Shown: piece by piece, positions 495 to 26,083 of the stretch
Position numbering within the stretch: position 1 is the first letter of the stretch
How the letters are laid out: every line of letters starts with the position of its first letter
Source: Neolecta irregularis DAH-3
Lineage: Eukaryota
Direction of reading: 5' to 3'
DNA length: 39,095 nucleotides
NCBI GenBank assembly: GCA_001929475.1
Contig: LXFE01000695.1
Coordinates: 1 to 39,095 of the forward strand
Position numbers and translations under genes: made by a program
The notes under the pieces: generated by a model
The model's database searches: none
Told to the model about the DNA's origin: nothing
What the model saw: the letters and a program-made list of their open reading frames with translations, nothing else

Positions 495-3400
495 ATGCTC
501 CGCCGCACTGCCGCCCTGCGGCCCCGCCTCCCACCCGCGCTCTTCCGCACACAGGCCACTAAACAGCGCTCCAGAAAAGACCTGCAGTCCCCCCTCCCGC
601 CCTCGCCAGAGACCGTCTACGACAAATCCAAACTCTTCGACAGCGTGCAGTCCCTCGTCGCCTCGAAAAATCTGCCCCGGGTCAACAACTACGACGCAAA
701 ATCAACAATTACACGGGCCCTCGGCCTCTCAACATACAACGTCTCCAAACGCAGACTCGCAACTTCCCAATCCTGCCCCTGGGCCTGGGAGGCCCTCGTA
801 GACATCCGCATCGACAAGTCCCGCTGCCTAGAGTCCCTTGGCCACGGCCCCTCCAGTGCAGATGCAGTCGCTTGCGCTTGGTTACACGCCCTCTTGGAAA
901 TCTACTCCTCCCCTTTGATCGATCAGCTGCACGACCCAAACGATCCCCTGCGTACTTCCTCCGTCACAGACACCCTCTGGTCCTCAGAACAGGATGCCCT
1001 CAAAGACGTCTACGACTACTGCGGCCGCTTTGACGAAACTCCCCTCATAAACAGAAGTAACCCCCGCCGCGACCAAGAAATTACGGTGGAAATATCCCTG
1101 CCAACTCAAAATATAATTGCCCGTGGCGCCTCAAAAAGTGTCATAAACGCCCACATCCTCGCCGCAATCGCCTTCAAACAGGCTGCTGAAGAATACCACA
1201 AAGAACACGGCCAGTCAGACCTCCTCGTCAAAGACCTCTCTCATCTCTCTACCCAAACAGCAATGACGTTTCTCGAATTCAGATCAATGAAACTCAGACT
1301 CTCCCATCCCCGCTCCACCCTCCACAAATCCCCCATTAAAGGCCTCTGGGCCGCTTCAGTCTCCATCGCAGACAAGGAACTCGGCTCCGTAGATATGACC
1401 TCAAAAAAACACGCTGAAGAAGTCGCATACCTCGTCGCCGCAATAGAAGTAAAAAAAGAAGAACCAGACCTCTATAACGACTTTCTTAAAACAATAGCTT
1501 CTTCCGGTGGCCATCTCCTCAAACCCCTCAAACCTTTCGATACAGAATTTGATAGAGACACCTTTGACGCCATGGACGACACCCTCTTTCACCTAAAACG
1601 CCTCGGTTGGAACCCATCACACTCCCTTCCCCTGCCATCCATCACTCAACAAGATATCGGAAAAAGAATGAAACCCGCTAAACGCTTTTCCCAACCAGAA
1701 CTTGGCTGCAAATCATTTCTCCTCAAAGCAAAATTGGAAGCTTACCATGCAAACGAAAACATCGCAGAATTGCGCGCCAAAAGAGCAGCACTCCCCATGT
1801 CGGCATACAAACAACAACTCCTCGATCTCGTCAAGGACAATCCGGTTTCTGTTGTTATAGGCGCTACAGGCAGCGGCAAAACTACTCAGGTATTATCATT
1901 TCAAACTAGACTAATACTAGCTACCCCAAATCATACTAGACAATGAAATTCAAGCCTGCAACGGCAGTCGCTGCAATATCATCTGCACCCAGCCTCGTCG
2001 CATAGCAGCGACCTCGGTAGCCTTGCGCGTTGCCAACGAGAGAAACGAACGACTCCAAGAAACCGTTGGCTACCAGGTTCGATTCGATTCAAGACCTCCC
2101 CAACCCAACGGAAGCATCTCGTTCTGCACTACCGGCGTTCTCCTTCGCCAATTGCAAGAATCAATCACCGAAACTCTTCGTGATGTCACGCACATCATCA
2201 TCGACGAAGTCCATGAACGCGACATTCAAATCGACTTTTTGCTAGTCATTCTCAAACGAATGCTAAAAGATCGCCTAGACAAAAATATTCAGGCACCCAA
2301 AATCGTCTTGATGAGCGCTACCATCGACTCCAACCTCTTTACTGAATATTTTCAAGATCTTTTTCCAAAGGGTACTGCCTGTCCTAAAATAGATATTCCC
2401 GGTCGCACGTTCCCTGTTGCGTCCCACCATCTCGATGAAATAAACGCAGACTTGAAATCGAGATATCCGGTTGCCCGAGCCCCGCTTTTATACGATGCCG
2501 ATTCAAATATTTTCCTCGACCGCGAACAAGAATTTAAATTAAAAAATGATCGATCTATCGACGTCGTTGATCAAGCGGAAGACCGGGATATAGGCGCCCG
2601 GATAAATTGGGATGGTAAAAGTGTAATCGGATTCAATGGTCTAATTCAACTTTCTACATCTCAAGACGACGCTAGAATACCGTACGGGTTGATGGCTACG
2701 CTTATTGCCCATATCGCTGCAACTACAACCGAAGGCTCAATCTTGGTTTTTCTGCCGGGTCTCGTAGAAATTACTAATCTGCACAATCTACTCGTTAGAA
2801 AACCGGTCCTCGATGCAGATTTAACGGATACGGAGAGGTATAGGATATACATGTTACATTCTTCCATCCCGCAAATGCAACAAGAAGTCTTTGATAAACT
2901 ACCTCCTGGCGTCCGAAAAATCATCCTCTCTACAAATATTGCAGAAACATCAATCACGATTCCAGATGTAGTGTTTGTTGTAGATAGTGGGAAACACCGC
3001 GAATTAATGTATGACCAGACTTCACGGATGTCGAGTTTGGCGTGTACTTGGATTAGTAAAAGTAATGCCCGGCAACGAAGTGGAAGAGCAGGTCGCGTAC
3101 AACATGGCCATTATTATTCAATGATGACTAATGAACGATTCGATTCTTTGCAGATTGCTTGTCAACCGGAAATTCTTCGAGCGGATTTACAGAAAATTTG
3201 TTTGGATATAAAGTTACTTGGAATGGGCGATTCCGTTGAAACGGTGCTGTCAGAGGCTATCCAGCCGCCAGATCCCGTGGCTGTGGTTACTGCTGTACAA
3301 CATTTAATGGCGCTGGACGCCATGGATTCTAGCGAAAATTTAACTCCACTAGGACGGGTTCTCGCCGTTTTGTACGTGTCCCTTGAACATCTCGACTAAT

Positions 3401-4832
3401 TGCCAGGCCAGTCGAACCTTCGCTTGGAAAAATGGTTCTTTTGGGAGTTATTTTCAAATGCCTGGATCCAGTATTAATCCTCGCCGCGTCAATCGGCACC
3501 AAAGACCCGTTTCTCTGTCCCCCACACGCTCGAGCACAAGCCGAAAGCAGTAGATTGAATTTCACTCAAGGTTCTAAATCAGATCAAATTGGTCTGTTGA
3601 ATGCATTTACACAATGGCGTCAACTGAAATCTCTTCCAAACAGTCGACAAGCACAATCTGAATTCACATTCAACAATTTCTTGCATAGAAATTCATTATC
3701 CACAATAGACCAAATCGCAAGACAAATACTCGAATTGCTAATAAAAGCAAATCTAGTAAAACCAGATCGCACCATGAGTCAAAATTTCCGGTTTGGACCA
3801 CCCGAAATGAACGTTAATTCCGAATCTATACCGTTGTTGAGGTCGTTGTTGACGGCCGGATTGTACCCAAACATCGCATGCAAAATATCAGAGTCGAAAA
3901 AGGGGTTACGAACTCTGCATAATTCGTGTTCTTTAATTCATCCTTCTTCGGTAAATTCCATGCGAAGGCAAAGAGCACATGAAACAAAATCATCGCCGCT
4001 GTTTTATACTTTTAGCTCTAAAATGAAGGCCGCTGACGAGTCTTCTCGTGCTGTGTTTCTACGATCAACGACCGCCGTTGATCCGTTGAGTTTACTAGTT
4101 TTCGGGAGACAACTTGAGCAAAAAGGATGGGTGTTGACTGTCGATCAATGGTTGCCATTTTACGTTAAAGGTCGAAGTTGTGGTGTTATACTGGATTTCA
4201 GAGAAGCAGTGTACAGTGTACCTCGTCCCACTGGAATTAATACTAATTACAAGATTCTGTCTACTACTTTTGCAAGGCTTGGTCAGCAGCAATTCAACGC
4301 GTTGTCCGATGACGATGAAAATGAACGGTCATTGGGCATGTCAAGTCCCAGTTACTCCCGCTTTGAACGATCCGCAGAAATAGATTGCGAAATTCGTCGA
4401 CGCGAACAATTGACACAAGGCTTTGTACAAACTTTGGAAATTTTCGATAAAATGATAAATCCAGTTTCAGACTCGGATCGACCTTCTAATCGGAATTTTT
4501 CCAGAGAGCCCAGAGAACATTTCAAACCTATTGACAATAAATTGGAACCTGATGGGTTTGTATCTAATTGTAAACGTCCAAATCAGGAATTCCATCCAAA
4601 TAACTTTCTGTCAGACTTGCTCGAATCGGATAGTGCAAAAATGAGGAGATCAGTTGATACAAACCCTGCAGTCAAACTACGCGAATTTCTGTCAGACTTG
4701 AACGAATCGGGTAGTGCAAAAGTACCGACCATGAAGAGAACAGATGATCAGTCGTCAAACAATCGTCCTTCGCCATTGGGATCAAGAGAGGATTATAATC
4801 CTCGTCCCAGTCTCCTTAAAGCGGCAATGTAA
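495..4832 (+). CDS. DEAH/RHA-family ATP-dependent RNA helicase (DHX30/DHX36/RHA-like) with a putative mitochondrial presequence and dsRBD-like N-terminal region
   Basis: Motifs GATGSGKTTQ|LPQ, TQPRRIAA, DEVHER, MSAT, STNIAETSITI, QRSGRAGR, then HA2/OB-type regions. Introns 1890-1920 (31 nt), 3372-3406 (35 nt) and probably 4218-4253 (36 nt, in frame). Confidence 0.9.
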
Positions 4833-13168: not shown

Positions 13169-16100
13169 CTAATTTTTGTCGGCTGCTGTAGCAGTCAGCG
13201 AAGATTCACCCAATGTAGATCCTTTAGGAAGTAAATTCAACCTTGGACGCTCACGATGTGGTTCTGTGGAACTTTCTGCTACAGCCTGCGAAGTGGTTAA
13301 ATCTTCAGTTTCGTGATTTTCTGCACCTGCAGCCGTCGAGTCACCTATATCCATATTCAGAAGACTTCATATCAGACAATGATTAAGCATGGAGCAAATA
13401 CTCAAACTGATTTACGGACTGAGCTGTGTGCGAGGCCTTTCGGATTACAGGGGTGCCACTTCTTGAAATAGAAGGTACTTCATCATCTTGAAACCTTGCT
13501 GGGTGCGACTTCTTTGTACCGTTCCCACTTGCACTTCGTAATGATGAAAATGCACCGCCAGGGCCCAGACCACTGGTCTGACTATTCGTCCTCATCATTC
13601 CAAGTCGACTTAGATCGCCAGCAAGAGCTTGCCGATTGGGGGTCTTAACAGTACTCCATCCATCTCCTCTTGTGCCTCCAGGGTTTGGAACACCGCCATA
13701 GCCCAAATTCCGATTCTGACCACGAGAATCACCCCTTCCGGCGTCTGAACGACGTGACTGCGCAGCCGATTTAGCAGCGGCTTCTTGCTGAGCCTTGGCA
13801 GCCTTTAGAGATTAAATTACGCAAAGACAGCAAGATTTACATCGGCATGAATCTCTGCAATAGTTTTCGGGCCAGCTTCTGCGGCCTTATCAAGCCATCC
13901 CTTCTTCCGAAGATCAATCAAATCCTGTAAAATATTAAAAATATCGCAAGAAAATAATGTACCATAACCATAAACTTCATACGAGATGGAATCTTACTTT
14001 CGAGAAGTTGTCCAAGTCGTTCAAAATAGGCAGTCATCCTGTGAGCCCCCTTATCCTTATCGAGCATCCCACCAACAGTAGTAAGCAATTTGCATAAACT
14101 CTCAACTTCTTCCTCCTCCGGGTCTGTGACATTTTGCAGCAATTTTGTCACGCACTCGTGCATAATTTTCTCGACTAACATACTTCGCTTGTATAGCTCA
14201 CCGATAAATTTGATAAGACCGAGACCACGCCGTTTGGCGGCTGCAGCAACATAGTATTCTTCGGAAAGCAATTCGGCTTCCTGAGGATTGGTAACTCCCT
14301 CTAGCTTGGGCGTAACATTCCAACCTCGTTCAAAATCTTCCTGACACCGATTGAGAAGGTATTTCCGGAATAAAAGACCGCCGCTGAGAGGCTGACCACT
14401 CTTTCCAAGAACTTTCTCATCCTTGATGTCGGAATTCATTTGATCCATCATATGTCGAGCAGAATCAGCATAAACACTAGAGAAATTGGGTTCATCGGTT
14501 GCTTTCTCAAATGTAAGTTGGATGACTTGTCGCAAGGTTTGGCCATCAGTTTCTCGTTTTGATTGAGAAGCAATATCCAGAATTTGTGCGGTGATTTTCT
14601 CTTCGTTATTTGGTGTAATCTTGTTGAGCAAAGCTTTAACTTTTCTCTGTACCGTATCAGGTGTCATCAATGGATCCTCGTTCCCTAAGGCAGGTCCAGC
14701 TTCAGCAGATATCTCCGCAAGAGCACGAGGCTTCCATCTAGACGCTGAAGCTTCGAGAGGCTTAATTTGATCGATTGGGATAGTGAGGCCCTTCTCCATA
14801 TCAGACTTTTCATGTCTACTTTTGCTCTCGGAGGTGCCACCGCGTCGAGATCCTCCCCCGCGGGTGGATTTCGCGCGAGGACTACCAGGAACCGCACCAA
14901 TCGATGTGGAGACACCAGAAGCAGAAGCGGAGCGGCCAGATCCTAAGGGTCCTAGGCTGGGTTTGAAATGGGCGCCCATAACCGGGAAAGCACCCACCGG
15001 TTGGCTTCCAGTTGCATTTGCTCCTCGACTTTGAGATCCGCCTTGTTTACTGGACAGTTCAAATCGTTGCTGCGAAGTCAACGTGGAAGCAGCAGGTCCG
15101 AGGCTAGTGAGTCCCAGTGATCCCATTGGTGGTGCACCACTAACTCGCGAAGCAGTTCGACCTCCGGTGCTTCGAGTGCTAGTAGGCCGAGATTCTCCGG
15201 ACAAATCACCGATAGTATCTCTTATCCTATCGTCCCAATCGAACATGGGCTTGTCTGTATAAGCAGCTTGGAACTGAAGCAAGAAATCTTTATCGTATAC
15301 AATACGGCCGGAGGGCGCATTCATATTGAGAGCAGGATTAGGAGATCTGAACCCCTCGGGGTACGAAACTTTTGTGATATCATTGATAAACTTGGAAGTT
15401 CGTAGAGCGGTGAGGGGAGCGGATGGTAATGGTTCGTTAATTTGTTTGGTGAGACTAAGGTTAAGCGATGACGGAATCTTTTTGTCCTTTTTCAACGGAG
15501 GAGGCATCGTTATGGCGTCTAATTCGCTTGAGGTGAACACCATTTCTGGAAGGGTAAGAGATCTCTTGGAATCGTCGACCTTTGCTTCTCGTTCATTCGT
15601 TAGGCGATTCTCCTCTTCTTGGGCCGTCTTTTCTTCCTCGGATTTTCTTATATCTTTGGCCAATCTGGCAGCGTTGGCTTCTTCCGCTTGACGCTTTTCC
15701 TCGGCAACTAGAGCAGCTTCTTCTTCCTCAAGTTTCTGTTTCGCAATTCGAGCAGCTTCCTCACGCATGCGTTGAGCTTCAGCGTCAGCAGCTTTTCTCT
15801 TTTCGGCTTCCTCCTCTTTTGCCTTTTCAGCCGCCTCTTGATCAATCTTGGTTTTTCTTTCCAGATCTTCTTTCTCCTTCGCAAGGCGTTCGCGTTCGGC
15901 CTTAGACTTTTCTTCGGCTTCAACTTTCTCGCGTGCTTCGCGCTCCTCGCGTTCTTTGACTTCGTGGATCTGTTTTATGAAAGTGGCTTTCTTAACTTCC
16001 GCTTTAGCTTTAGCATCGTCTTCTTCAACAGAATCTTTTTGAGAACCTGGGTGTTCACTCTCGTTTGCAATAGAGGGGGAATCAGTTTTCGTACGTAATG

Positions 16101-17390
16101 AAGAGACTTTCTTGGAAGGAACAATTTTTGCCACCACTTCTGATTTTGTATCTGGATTAATAATTTTTATCGCAGATGTTTTCTTAGTTGGAAGCTGGAA
16201 TTCAGTTGCCTTTGGAGTTGATGGAACAACAGAAGTAGCACTGGCAGAATGGCGATGGCTTTGGGCATCTGAAATAGTTGAGGCTGATCGACTCATTGGA
16301 GGAGGGCCGAATGAGGGCCCCACGGGACTGACATATGCCGGGCTGGAAGAGGCTGTGTAAGCATTGTTGGGTCGGGGACTTGCTGGCGTAAATCCGTGGC
16401 TGGACACTCCCATAGGACCTGCGTAATAAGGATAGTTAGGGTCCATCATGGGTGGATAGCCAGGCTATATAATTAGATGAAAGTTATAGGAGAATGACGC
16501 ACGTATGTAGGAACCATATAGGTAGGAGTCTGCAATGGACTTCCCATAGGCATTTGTGCATGAGGTTGAGCGTGAGTTGTAAGTGGGCTCGGGAGAAGAT
16601 TAGAAGCTCGAGGACTTGGCCTTGTTCGACTTCCCGGTTGGTTGAAGGGCATGGCGGGGCTCGGATTGTTGAATCCTCGCTGAGAAACCATAGGAGAACG
16701 GAAGTTTGAATTCTGGTATCCGCCCGGATATCCGTTGTACTGACCATGCTGAAACTGCTGCCCATGAGCAAAGTGGGGTTGCGCATATGCCTGTTGTGGA
16801 GTGCGTCGCGGAGACTGTGCGATCTCAGACATATGGTTCTGGTGATGAGCATGTTCTGCAGAGGCAGAGTGCGTTGAATGCACAGAATCGCGGCGGACCC
16901 GCGCAGGAAGAGAAGTCTGGCCGGAGATCGGAATGGAACCGTTGTGTGATTGAGAACTCAAGACATTAGAAACCTGCTAGAAGGCTTAGCCGCAGCAAAG
17001 ATCGGCCGGCAGTACTTCTTTGTGCGAAACGGGAGCGGGAGGGGTAGCAGTACTTGCGGGTACTTGCGCAGACTCATCTCGAATTCCTGCGCTATTAGGC
17101 ATTTCTGCTCGCTTTTCTACAGCCGGCTGTTTCAGAGGTACTGGGGTGGGACCGTTCGTCAAGGTCACTGGCTGTACAGGAGCAATCGGATGACCGTTAG
17201 TCTTTGTTGGTTGCTGTTTCACTGGAGCGCTGGACGCGACACTTGCAGAGCGGCCATATGTTGCTGGTATCTGGGGAACGGCAGGCTTGGGAGTCTGAGG
17301 CACTTGTGTAGGTGGCGGATGGGAAGAAATTTGCTGGGGAGGCGGCTTGGGGGCAGAAGCAATTTTAGACCACGACTGTTGCTGCATCAT
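13169..17390 (-). CDS. eIF4G: Eukaryotic translation initiation factor 4G
   Basis: eIF4E-binding motif YDKDFLL (YxxxxL-phi); MIF4G domain (VQRKVKALLNKIT..FEKATDEPNFS..FRKYLLNRCQEDFE..KRRGLGLIKFIGEL..EEEVESLCKLLTTVG); Pro/Gln-rich N-terminus; five coding introns. Confidence 0.93.
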
Positions 17391-17711
17391 CTGCGAAAAA
17401 ATCCGCCGAGATCCTTCGCGTATGGGACAAAGGATGAGTGGAAGAAACGACTCACCTACAGAGTGGCAAACAAGCACGGGGGTGGGAGGGAGGGTGCCTG
17501 CAGAAAAGGGCAGGCTCGCTGGTGGAGGGAAGAAATTACCAAGCTCGCCTGGTGGTGGTCAGTTGGTGACGCCGCTGATTTTACTGCAATCCGCAGGTCA
17601 GGGATTTCTATTCACATAGATATTTGCAAGGCGCAAGGATGGAAATAACGCGCTATTCTATACTGCCTACCTCTACAACCATTATCTGTCATATCACTTG
17701 CAATCCTGCGT

Positions 17712-19500
17712 TTAGTGGCAATAGAAATTTTCCTAGGATCCATGAGCTCTCTCTTACACAGACTAAAGATCTTATACCTCCGGTATACGTCCCCGCAAGT
17801 AAGGTGGTTCGGATCCAGGCCTGCCTATATCAGAATCATGGAATACGGAATAACTCGTACACGTAGACATCTTTGAACAGAGTCTTTGGATCTGCTGCCG
17901 GATCTGGCGATTTCTCTGCTTCCTTAGTTTCAGCCTCTACACGAGCCCGAGCTTCCTTATCAACTTCCTATTGGCTAATGAGATCAAGCTAGAGGTCGAT
18001 TTGTACTTTCAACTGGAATTCACTCAAGACATTCCATTCCAAGATTTTTGCTTTGAGTCCTGCAATAGCATCATTTGTTGACCGCATATATTGGATTTCC
18101 TCTCGAGTTCGATACTGCATAATCAGCTGATAGTCGAAGCTCAAACAAACCGTCACACCAGGGTCAGACATGCTGTGACCACCTTGATGGTCTAGTCATG
18201 TTTCACGTGAAGATCGCATACCATATCTATAAGTCTCAAATTCAAGGACCAGAGGTCCCTTCCCGCTTGTTGTCCATTCTTTGGCAAAACCACTAGCATG
18301 TTTGACCGCAAGAACATCCATTCCATTGACTTTAATACCAGGAATATACTGCCCTCTTTTATAGTACTCCGTCAGAGCACTGCTTCTCTCAGCCGAAGTT
18401 CCCTAACATCGTTAATGTTGCTCTCTCGGCTCCTCTACCATGCCGTATTTGTTGTTCTCGCAGGCAAAAACGCAAGGTAGATCCCAGAGTTTGGCCATAT
18501 TAAACGCCTCGAAAACTTGTCCTTGATTTGAAGCTCCGTCGCCATATAGCGTGAAGGCACAGTTGTCACGTCCCATATATTTGAGTGCAAATGCTAGACC
18601 AGCACCCACAGGAACCTGGGCACCAACAATACCATTTCCTCCAAAGAATCCTTTCGTAAACATATGCATTGAACCGCCTGGACCGGTAAGTGCCTGTGCA
18701 TATATCGTGTGGAACCTTTTCCATGCGCAATGCCGTCTTGGCGTCCTAGCAATTCGGCCAATATGGATTTAACCGAGCCTCCTCGCATAAGGGTGAATCC
18801 TAATGATAAGAGCAATCTAGAAAGGGGACATGCCATGACAACGATAAGCTGTGATAACCTGATCATCAGTTAGCAAACAACCTCCATCTCGGAATATCTT
18901 GCCATGTCCTCTATTTTGAGTCAGCAAACAGTAACGAGCTTGAAGAAATCATGCCCTTGGTAATAGCTTTCTCAATACCGACAGCGATAGCTTCCTGTCC
19001 AGTTGATAGGTGACTTGTCGCTGATTAGTAGATTTATTTAGGACCTGTCATTCATACCAGCTAAATGTGGTCAGCGATAAATACCATGGACCAAAGAAAG
19101 GGAACTATACAATCCTCGAATTTTCTTTGCTTTGTATAAAGCATCTGCAGCCATCTCTAATCGTCGAATAGTGACCATATCGGTATACCTATAAAATAAG
19201 AAACTGCTGGTGAAGGATGCATACATGGCAATTAATTCCTTCTTCGTGACATCCACCTCCAATTTCGGGCCATCCAATTTATAGAATTCGAAGCTGTCCG
19301 AAGGAAGGGTTACTTTAAAATGCTCATCGTCTTTTTTGGGCTTTTTTTTGACATCTGCCTGGGATGAGGCCGCGTCTATTGTAACTGTTCTTAGAAACTG
19401 CACCTGGTCACTTCTCGTTTTTTAAAAACCTTCGTACAGGGAGAGTTTTGTGAATTCTATTCGAAAAGAGGGATAAGCGGGCGAAGGGACGGGGCAGCAT
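17712..19500 (-). CDS. PDA1: Pyruvate dehydrogenase E1 alpha subunit, mitochondrial (about 14 introns, micro-exons)
   Basis: [91 protein letters not shown], all reconstructed across short introns. Confidence 0.95.
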
Positions 19501-19905: not shown

Positions 19906-21145
19906 ATGATATTTAGATTTGGGGTTTCCTCTATTTCCCGTCCATCCCGGGGTCTCCTCTCACTCCAACGACGATCTTTTTCCATTCAACCACCTGCGCG
20001 ATCGACATATTATCGAATTCCGCGCAGGCCGCAGTCCTCCCGAATCGAGAATTCCCCTCGGCGCTCCATATCATGGCGGAACCGTATTTCCACATTTCTG
20101 ATAGGAGGCGCGACTGTCATGGGCGGCAGTAGTATGCGCATTTGTAAAAATCTCTTTTTGAAATTTAGTTTATTTCGTCTCTCACCTCGAGACCGTCCCT
20201 ATGACTGGCCGCTGTCGGTTTATCGATATGTCACCAGAGGAGGAGCAAGAGCTATCCAAAGTTGCCTACCGGGAAATTATGACTAGATACCGAAACCAGA
20301 TATTGCCTGGGAACCACCCAACATCCAGGTTCGTGAGCAATGTAGCTCAGAGAATTATCAAAGTCTCTGGGTTAGAAGGCCTGAGATGGGAGATTCATGT
20401 CATCGATAGTCCCGAGAAGAATGCATTCATACTTCCAGGTGGAAAAGTGTTTGTCTTCACGGTATGTTGAATAAGAACCGGACCATGCTGATTTTCACTA
20501 GGGGATCCTACCCCTTGCACAGAATAAGGTACCATATATATTCCGGATCTTGTACTTATGCTTATAGGATGGCCTTGCAAGCGTCCTTGCACATGGTGAG
20601 CCTTTTTTATATGATTTATTCCATTAACCCCAATGATAGAGGTTGGCCATCAAGTTGCGCGACATATTGCAGAACAAAACAGTTTTGGGAAAATCATTAT
20701 GCTGGTTAGGTTGCTTTTGACTTTTACTTTCGGCGATTCTTTAGGTATTGGTGGGCTTGTTACAGAGTTTGGGTTGGCTATGCCATATTCTCGAAAATAT
20801 GAATCTGAAGGTATCTCCATGAATATCTGGAATCTAACTGTTCAGCCGATTATATTGGTCTGCTATTGATGAGTCAAGCTTGCTTTGATCCTGGTGAAGC
20901 AAAACTCTTCTGGCAGAGAATGGCTAAAGCTGAGACGTCTTCAATGCCACAATTTGTCAGTACACATCCTACCCCAAAGAATCGATCGAAAAACATTGAG
21001 AAGTGGCTTCCAGAGGTATATTCCCCTACGTAAGACGCACTGGATATCTTAGGCATATGAAAACCGAGCTTCCAGTGACTGCGAATCTCACCTTGGGGGA
21101 ATTTACGATCAGTTTGTTCGACATACTAATTATGCAAGTTACTAG
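19906..21145 (+). CDS. OMA1: Mitochondrial inner-membrane M48 metallopeptidase
   Basis: VPMTGRCRF, WEIHVIDSPEKNAFILPGGKVFVFT|GILP, LASVLAH|EVGHQVARH (HEXXH), PYSRKYESEAD, FVSTHP. Six introns. Arg/Ser-rich presequence. Confidence 0.9.
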
Positions 21146-24983: not shown

Positions 24984-26083
24984 TTAGAGTTTTGGCCCTG
25001 GAAGCTGTTTAATCCCTCTGTTTGAGTTTGCGAATTGCCTGACAAGGACTGTACATGATGTCTCCTTACACAGGTCCTTGCGCTTTGAAACGGGAAGCTT
25101 GTTTAGAAATTCCAGCCCTGCTGCCCTGAAATTGTTAGTCATGATGATCCTACTTTGATATACCTTTCAATAGCCTCCAAAGGCATCTGGAAATCCGTCA
25201 GAGGTGTACTATCGGGAATTGAAACTGTTGAATTGGGCATGACAAAAGCTGCCACAGCAACTTGCTCGGTTTCCCCATTATCAGCCACAATAATTTTGTA
25301 AAAATGAGTTGGGACGGCTACATTCGGTGGTGTTCCAATGACTTCGTAGGAAACCCTCCATTTTCCGTCTTGATCCTGCTTGGGGAGATACAGAGGACCG
25401 GTGATAATCCGCACAGTTTGGTATTGTGCCGTTAGACGACGGCAAAAATCTTCAAAATGTGCCCAATCTAAAGTCAGAGCATGAAGGAAGAAAGTGAAAT
25501 ACAGTTACGGTTTAACTGGGGAGTTTGAGGACAAATGTTGGATAATATAAAAGTCTCGTTCATGGCTTCTTGAGAGATTTTGGCATCTGCAGCAGGAGCC
25601 TAGGTGATCAGGGCAGCTAGGCCTAAGAGTTGTACCTGGTGGCCTCGATCGTAACCGCTACGACTATAATCCGACAGCTTGGTCCGAAATTTTAACGGGA
25701 TTTCTGCATCCTCATAAAATTCACTATTCTTGCGATCTCCGTTTTTGCGCTCTAGCGATTTTGCCGTCAATACTTCGGCAACCTATCATACATCACTTTG
25801 AGATCCAAGGAAAAAGGAGCAATACCCAAGCAGGATTTCTCATTCGACGGTCATACAATGAGATAAAAGCCTTCCTATTGCCGATATCAGCAGATATAAG
25901 TGGCGTTCCGTATTTAAGGATCTCATTTGGATCGACAACTGCAGTTGCGGTGGGGGAAATTACGAGCGCTGTTCTCTTTGAGACGGATGAAGACGAGGAG
26001 TCCTTTTCCCAGGCAACAGATGCGCCAACAATAGCACCACCGACAGCAGTGCCGAGAGCGAATGCGATAATGCGAGCAGGCAT
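24984..26083 (-). CDS. NUC1: Mitochondrial DNA/RNA non-specific endonuclease (EndoG family)
   Basis: YDRRMRNPAW|VAE, SGYDRGHQ|APAADA, ETFILSNICPQ, ITGPLYLP..VSYEVIGTPPNVAVPTHFYK, IER|AAGLEF. Four introns; stop at 24984-24986. Confidence 0.92.

Follow-up and report, generated by a model that had tools for sequence, protein, structure and literature searches.

Ultra-small exons have been described in fungi, plants and animals. In fungi, a 1-nt exon has been reported in the CYP621A P450 genes of Fusarium, and an 8-nt exon in a P450 gene of Phanerochaete (Nelson & Syed 2026, PMC12940212). Plant micro-exons of 1–15 nt include the 1-nt exons of APC11 and VPS55, and the introns that flank such exons are argued to be removed sequentially (Yu et al. 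2022, PMC8831610). Three-nucleotide micro-exons have been reported in animals. The micro-exons of animal neurons are described as being spliced by a PRP-40-dependent form of intron definition (Choudhary et al. 2021, PMC8378409); the same report presents intron definition as the default for short introns and as the mode on which micro-exons rely. A further type of compact splicing unit, the stwintron, is known from filamentous fungi (Sci Rep 2019, PMC6616335; NAR 2017, PMC5587772). The literature searched for this study yielded no fungal nuclear gene with a reported 3-nt exon, and likewise no such report for PDA1 or for Neolecta. One fungal paper that contains the phrase "3-nt exon" refers by it to three exonic bases in a construct.

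Here we describe a putative 3-nt coding exon in the PDA1 gene of Neolecta irregularis DAH-3. N. irregularis is the only sequenced Neolecta, and it is used in comparative work on fungal multicellularity and intron evolution. The window analyzed comprises the 39,095 nt of contig LXFE01000695.1 (assembly GCA_001929475.1), and all coordinates given below are positions in this window. The only gap in the contig is a run of 10 N at 182–191.

Genes and introns of the window

By homology, the gene at 17712–19500 on the minus strand is that of mitochondrial pyruvate dehydrogenase E1-alpha (PDA1/PDHA1), an identity already assigned to it in a sequence-only reading of this locus. The translation of exon 9 (18439–18675, minus strand) matches P0001, a deposited protein of N. 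irregularis DAH-3, at 100% identity. P0001 carries the PF00676 domain, as do all of the homologues listed. The other matches, among the 120 listed, are fungal pyruvate dehydrogenase E1-alpha proteins that are at most 88% identical, and these 120 matches include no transcript-derived protein of 100% identity besides the deposited model. The complete PDA1 model is 72–83% identical to fungal E1-alpha proteins over 230–386 residues, and one homologue, P0107, matches the structures of human PDHA1 (1ni4 and others) with an E value of about 2e-118. The model also contains the stretch YGDGASNQG...CENNKYGM, which we take to be the thiamine-diphosphate (TPP) motif (GDG...NN). Its overall layout is as follows.

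17712..19500, minus strand: PDA1 coding region, 15 exons, 407 aa, model joined by coordinates
PDA1 exon lengths (nt): 63, 173, 78, 3, 59, 8, 25, 84, 239, 181, 32, 108, 107, 43, 21

Protein-to-DNA spliced alignment with each of three homologues (P0107, P0002 and P0038) returned the same 12 internal introns. The aligner penalized GT and GC donors equally and had neither a prior on exon size nor a minimum for it. The 14th intron (17777–17733), recovered by one of the three queries, and the last exon are tentative.

In the deposited annotation, PDA1 is fused to the downstream eIF4G gene, yielding a protein of 1808 aa (P0001) that carries PF12152 and PF02854 in addition. The fusion spans 13921–19500 on the minus strand; the MIF4G and eIF_4G1 domains are located in an open reading frame at 13921–16464, and the PDA1 model stops at about 17712.

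The window contains 27 homology-supported introns, all of 31–50 nt, of which 14 are found in PDA1, six in Oma1, four in Nuc1 and three in a DEAH-box helicase gene. The helicase introns that were kept are 1890–1920 and 3372–3406, both supported by three of three homologues and by the deposited protein, and 4218–4253, supported by two of three homologues. Many other "introns" proposed by the aligner at the poorly conserved ends of the helicase were discarded as gap artefacts. The intron at 4218–4253 (plus strand; GTACCT...TACTAATTACAAG) is a possible in-frame intron of 36 nt, and the deposited helicase reads through it.

The OMA1-like M48 peptidase gene (20129–21142, plus strand) has six GT-AG introns of 35–44 nt, and two of its internal exons measure 27 and 28 nt. 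Its deposited model begins past the first intron, which is supported by three homologues (two Pneumocystis proteins and P0130). A protein of 240 aa encoded on a 1165-nt JGI contig (P0122) is 81% identical to the Neolecta OMA1 exon, compared with 55–57% for the Pneumocystis proteins. Its source is probably a relative of Neolecta sampled from the environment, and the sequence may derive from a transcript. The gene for the mitochondrial nuclease Nuc1/EndoG differs from its deposited model at 25468–25508 (minus strand), where the deposited donor is 25508 and the donor backed by four of four homologues is 25502. A conserved stretch of this nuclease reads LNRNYW in the homologue-guided model and LNHW in the deposited one.

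A probable 3-nt exon within the RGFCHL motif

The trinucleotide CTG at 19058–19060 on the minus strand is very likely a real exon, and we interpret it as a constitutive 3-nt coding exon of N. irregularis PDA1. By micro-exon we mean an internal coding exon of at most 30 nt. The exons and introns around it, in 5' to 3' order of the minus strand, are listed below.

19111..19188, minus strand: exon 3, 78 nt; its 3' end, AAA ATT CGA GGA TT, encodes K I R G and supplies the first two bases of Phe-105
19061..19110, minus strand: intron 3, 50 nt, phase 2, GT-AG, donor GTATAG, acceptor TAG; reads GTATAG...CGCTGACCACATTTAG
19058..19060, minus strand: putative micro-exon (exon 4), CTG; C completes Phe-105 (TT/C) and TG opens Cys-106 (TG/T)
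19014..19057, minus strand: intron 4, 44 nt, phase 2, GT-AG, donor GTATGA, acceptor AAG; reads GTATGA...CTACTAATCAGCGACAAG
18955..19013, minus strand: exon 5, 59 nt; opens with TCACCTATCAACT, in which T is the third base of Cys-106 and the codons for H L S T G Q E follow

Each of the two flanking introns is complete by itself, with its own donor, branch-like motif and acceptor and a length within the range of the window. The boundaries of the trinucleotide read TTTAG/CTG/GTATGA (19065–19052), with CTG immediately preceded by an acceptor AG and immediately followed by a donor GT. Intron 3 contains a branch-like CTGAC (19074–19070) whose A, at 19071, is located 10 nt before the G of the acceptor, and intron 4 contains a branch-like TACTAAT (19030–19024) whose A, at 19025, is located 11 nt before it. 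Across the introns of the window, a branch-like CTRAY motif is found by eye 6–13 nt before the acceptor G. The coordinates and strings that the sequence-only reading gave for CTG and for both introns match the minus strand exactly.

The three bases help to encode a conserved protein motif. When CTG is joined, the product reads KIRGFCHL; when CTG is omitted, it reads IRGFHLSTGQ, still in frame with the Cys lost. Both outcomes had been predicted from the letters of the sequence, and both were seen when splice paths were enumerated. We investigated the conservation of the motif in the 83 homologues of 380–440 aa found among the 120 matches listed. R, G, F, C and H (model positions 103–107) are each present in 83/83 of these proteins, and I and L in 82/83 each; the motif IRGFCHL is near-invariant. 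The model with CTG is free of gaps around the motif with respect to the seven homologues displayed in the alignment. Cys-106 corresponds in the alignment to residue 66 of chain 1ni4_A (365 residues), and we take the aligned residue to be Cys-62 of mature mammalian E1-alpha. Cys-62 was reportedly identified as an essential active-site cysteine by Ali, Roche and Patel in 1993.

Between 19188 and 18955, 2952 splice paths were enumerated, allowing zero to two GT/GC-AG introns of at least 20 nt, and 467 of these are open in frame. Paths were scored by their mean BLOSUM62 local alignment score against 20 homologues. The path with the micro-exon has the top score (189.2), followed by the path that skips it and yields IRGFHL (169.2), and all other paths score at most 160.2. 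No single-intron path among those enumerated gives the Cys. In the spliced alignments, introns 19110–19061 and 19057–19014 were recovered with each of the three query proteins (P0107, P0002 and P0038). By both path enumeration and spliced alignment, the micro-exon is the sole canonical splice solution that restores IRGFCHL. A stwintron arrangement was also considered and rejected: removal of the whole of 19110–19014 gives IRGFHL without the invariant Cys, and three bases must stay.

Metagenome contigs were scanned for related loci by tblastn with an alignment of 12 fungal proteins. Of the 80 loci retrieved, 79 consist of one uninterrupted HSP. The sole intron-bearing locus (L003) is interrupted only after residue 308 and has no intron at the motif.

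Splice signals

To score the splice sites, matrices were trained on 25 introns of the window, without the two that flank the micro-exon. Donor 19057, directly after CTG, scores 8.1 and is second among the 184 GT/GC sites of the gene; donor 19110, with 5.8, is fourteenth. Among the 128 AG sites, acceptor 19061 takes rank 15 (score 5.1). Acceptor 19014 (GACAAG) takes rank 86 with a score of -0.1, below the minimum training score of 1.8, and is the weakest point of the micro-exon model. A nearer CAG in intron 4 (19023–19021) scores 2.7, above 19014. It follows the branch-like A by only 4 nt, a distance that we argue is too short for use, with branch sites chosen by eye; PDA1 introns 10 and 13 likewise skip an AG that is equally close to a branch-like A.

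Very small exons are tolerated here, as the 8-nt exon of PDA1 and the 27- and 28-nt exons of Oma1 indicate. No special RNA fold was found across 19120–19004 on the minus strand: the folding energy is -20.5 kcal/mol (z 0.34), which 131 of 200 shuffles equal or better.

Alternative readings of the locus

The sequence-only reading went further in suggesting that skipping of CTG could serve as a silent off-switch. In such an arrangement the trinucleotide would be a regulated cassette, included or skipped according to condition, and the skipped form would be an in-frame, Cys-less and presumably inactive E1-alpha. This proposal is compatible with a real micro-exon. It also has some attraction, as the skipped form keeps the frame without a stop and so would evade nonsense-mediated decay, and the outer donor 19110 and outer acceptor 19014 would be common to both forms. 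However, the skipped form would require an intron of 97 nt (19110–19014), about twice the length of the longest of the 27 introns in the window. In addition, the second-best donor-like site of the gene is located just after CTG, and the RNA structure of the stretch is ordinary. The sequence gives no sign of regulated skipping, and we consider this off-switch to be quite unlikely. Pyruvate dehydrogenase is controlled by phosphorylation of E1-alpha, and a splicing switch is not needed.

If, instead, there were no micro-exon, the same 97 nt could be removed as a single intron in all transcripts, leaving a Neolecta enzyme that reads IRGFHL and has no Cys at this position. This solution needs one splicing event only, uses canonical GT-AG borders and is the runner-up in the path enumeration. 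It requires, however, that Neolecta has lost a Cys present in every one of the 83 homologues, in an alignment column without gaps, and that an intron twice as long as any other in the window contains by coincidence a suitable acceptor and donor separated by three bases. We estimated how often this would occur by mononucleotide shuffling of the interior of the 97-nt stretch, keeping the donor hexamer and the acceptor trinucleotide fixed. A shuffle was counted when it contained AG-NNN-GT/GC with an NNN giving TT[C/T]+TG/T and with both sub-introns of at least 30 nt, branch sites not being part of the criterion. A suitable arrangement arose in 1002 of 200000 shuffles (0.5%). A single long intron is accordingly a very unlikely account of the locus.

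The deposited protein represents another reading, as it gives IRGLYTATSHL at the motif, without the invariant Phe-Cys. Comparison by eye of this peptide with that of the fourth-ranked path (score 159.2) shows that the two are equal here, and the deposited model seems to use the same 3-nt CTG, but between an outer donor and an outer acceptor that differ from ours by 5 and 7 nt, respectively. The introns of this path are 19105–19061 and 19057–19021, and its product is four residues longer. According to the N. irregularis genome paper, RNA was sequenced and 99.4% of the gene models have RNA-seq support (PMC5309816), which would favor the deposited junctions, as does the higher matrix score of acceptor 19021 relative to 19014. 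Against this, the path loses both the invariant F and the invariant C and places a four-residue insertion where none of the 83 homologues has one. Donor 19105 scores only 1.2 (rank 58 of 184), and the CAG at 19021 is the one that crowds the branch-like A. The deposited protein is also plainly wrong nearby, where three GC-AG introns are read through out of frame and where the eIF4G fusion occurs, and the deposited Nuc1 model is off as well, with a donor 6 nt from the one that homologues support. We regard the deposited junctions as highly improbable.

That the locus is a pseudogene or an assembly artefact is barely conceivable, since the exons, all of them open, follow homologues collinearly for about 380 residues (72–83% identity) and the reported coverage is 199-fold, and beyond the draft status of the assembly (N50 of 16 kb, PMC5309816) nothing specific points to it.

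The PDA1 model presented here corrects the public model of a core metabolic enzyme, in which Phe-Cys is missing, about 30 residues are wrong and an eIF4G is appended. Re-annotation of the genome should be guided by proteins and should be aware of micro-exons and of GC donors.

Proposed splicing of the micro-exon

If CTG is the constitutive exon that we propose, introns 3 and 4 would be two ordinary short spliceosomal introns, both in phase 2, that are inserted three bases apart in codons 105 and 106, within RGFCHL. Each could be recognized singly across its 44–50 nt with its own donor paired to its own branch site, that is, by intron definition. Splicing by intron definition is a reasonable reading, which we infer from the fact that all 27 introns measure 31–50 nt and from the published argument outlined above. 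With only 3 nt separating the end of intron 3 from the start of intron 4, the 3' splice site of the former and the 5' splice site of the latter could not be occupied simultaneously, so that removal would have to be sequential. The two introns would most likely be removed in turn, in either order. Once the first had been removed, CTG would become the end or the start of an exon of normal size, presenting either TTCTG/GTATGA as a donor or TTTAG/CTGTCAC as an acceptor, and the mature product would be a normal E1-alpha. The presence of CTG in the mRNA, its constitutive use and the consecutive loss of its neighbors are all features that we infer from the genomic sequence.

GC-AG introns and a second micro-exon downstream

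Immediately downstream of exon 5, the PDA1 model contains three introns with GC donors and a second very short exon.

18911..18954, minus strand: intron 5, 44 nt, GC-AG, GCATGA...TGCTGAC...TAG
18903..18910, minus strand: exon 6, the second micro-exon, 8 nt (AGGACATG), encoding part of K-E-D-M
18859..18902, minus strand: intron 6, 44 nt, GC-AG, GCAAGA...TGCTAAC...CAG
18800..18833, minus strand: intron 7, 34 nt, GC-AG, GCATGT...TAG, splitting the invariant C-H-G

All three introns have the features of GC-AG introns, with G at -1, A at +3 and G at +5 in 3/3, and all three were recovered with each of the three query proteins. The best paths restricted to GT donors cost 26–34 score units in this part of the gene, and those for the second region also lose the invariant C-H-G. 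GC donors are absent from the 13 homology-supported introns of Oma1, Nuc1 and the DEAH helicase.

Of the 78 intron pairs in the gene, introns 5 and 6 form the most similar one (z 3.96, with 0 of 300 shuffles reaching this value), a similarity that is due in part to shared splice signals. No repeat of neighboring sequence was detected by eye in the 8-nt exon. A tandem-duplication origin was also considered for introns 3 and 4 and was rejected, as their global alignment is unremarkable and the pair is outside the top 8 of the 78.

The stretch from 19110 to 18800 (given as 260 nt) contains five introns, and the coding sequence among them amounts to 95 nt in exons of 3, 59, 8 and 25 nt. It could be a local hot spot of intron gain in which introns 5 and 6 are copies of each other, a scenario that we consider speculative and rather unlikely. 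If it were true, very short introns would spread locally by duplication or reverse splicing, with ultra-micro-exons as a by-product, and Neolecta would offer a natural system in which to observe how the spliceosome handles 3-nt exons.

Comparison with known ultra-small exons

The putative PDA1 micro-exon most readily invites comparison with the CYP621A exon of Fusarium. In both cases, an ultra-short exon is found in a highly conserved motif of a fungal nuclear gene and is mishandled by automatic annotation, and in both cases the exon is deduced from phase, from continuity of the motif and from an apparent intron of about twice the usual length. The two differ in that the CYP621A exon measures 1 nt, is conserved in at least 20 orthologues and is confirmed by SRA reads, as described in PMC12940212. 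The PDA1 exon, in contrast, measures 3 nt, belongs to a housekeeping enzyme of a Taphrinomycotina fungus, is set among introns of 31–50 nt and is predicted from the genomic sequence.

The micro-exons of plants, like that of PDA1, are located in conserved coding regions and are misannotated, in plants pervasively, and in both systems the flanking introns are argued to be unable to carry spliceosomes at the same time. The plant examples differ in having longer flanking introns, in being alternatively spliced in many cases and in being verified by RNA, according to PMC8831610. A similar relationship exists with the neuronal micro-exons of animals. Like them, the PDA1 exon is too small for exon definition and would be recognized across its introns, where short intron length relieves the need for helper factors. 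The neuronal examples are described as regulated cassettes with long introns and dedicated regulators. In PDA1, by contrast, constitutive inclusion is likely the default, and all introns are tiny. Stwintrons resemble the PDA1 arrangement in that two short fungal introns are in immediate contact and are excised consecutively. In a stwintron as described, however, a splice signal of the outer intron is split by the inner one, and no bases from between the two are kept in the mRNA, whereas PDA1 would keep three. With these likenesses and differences, PDA1 adds a probable 3-nt case to the short list of fungal ultra-small exons, and it calls for no new mechanism.
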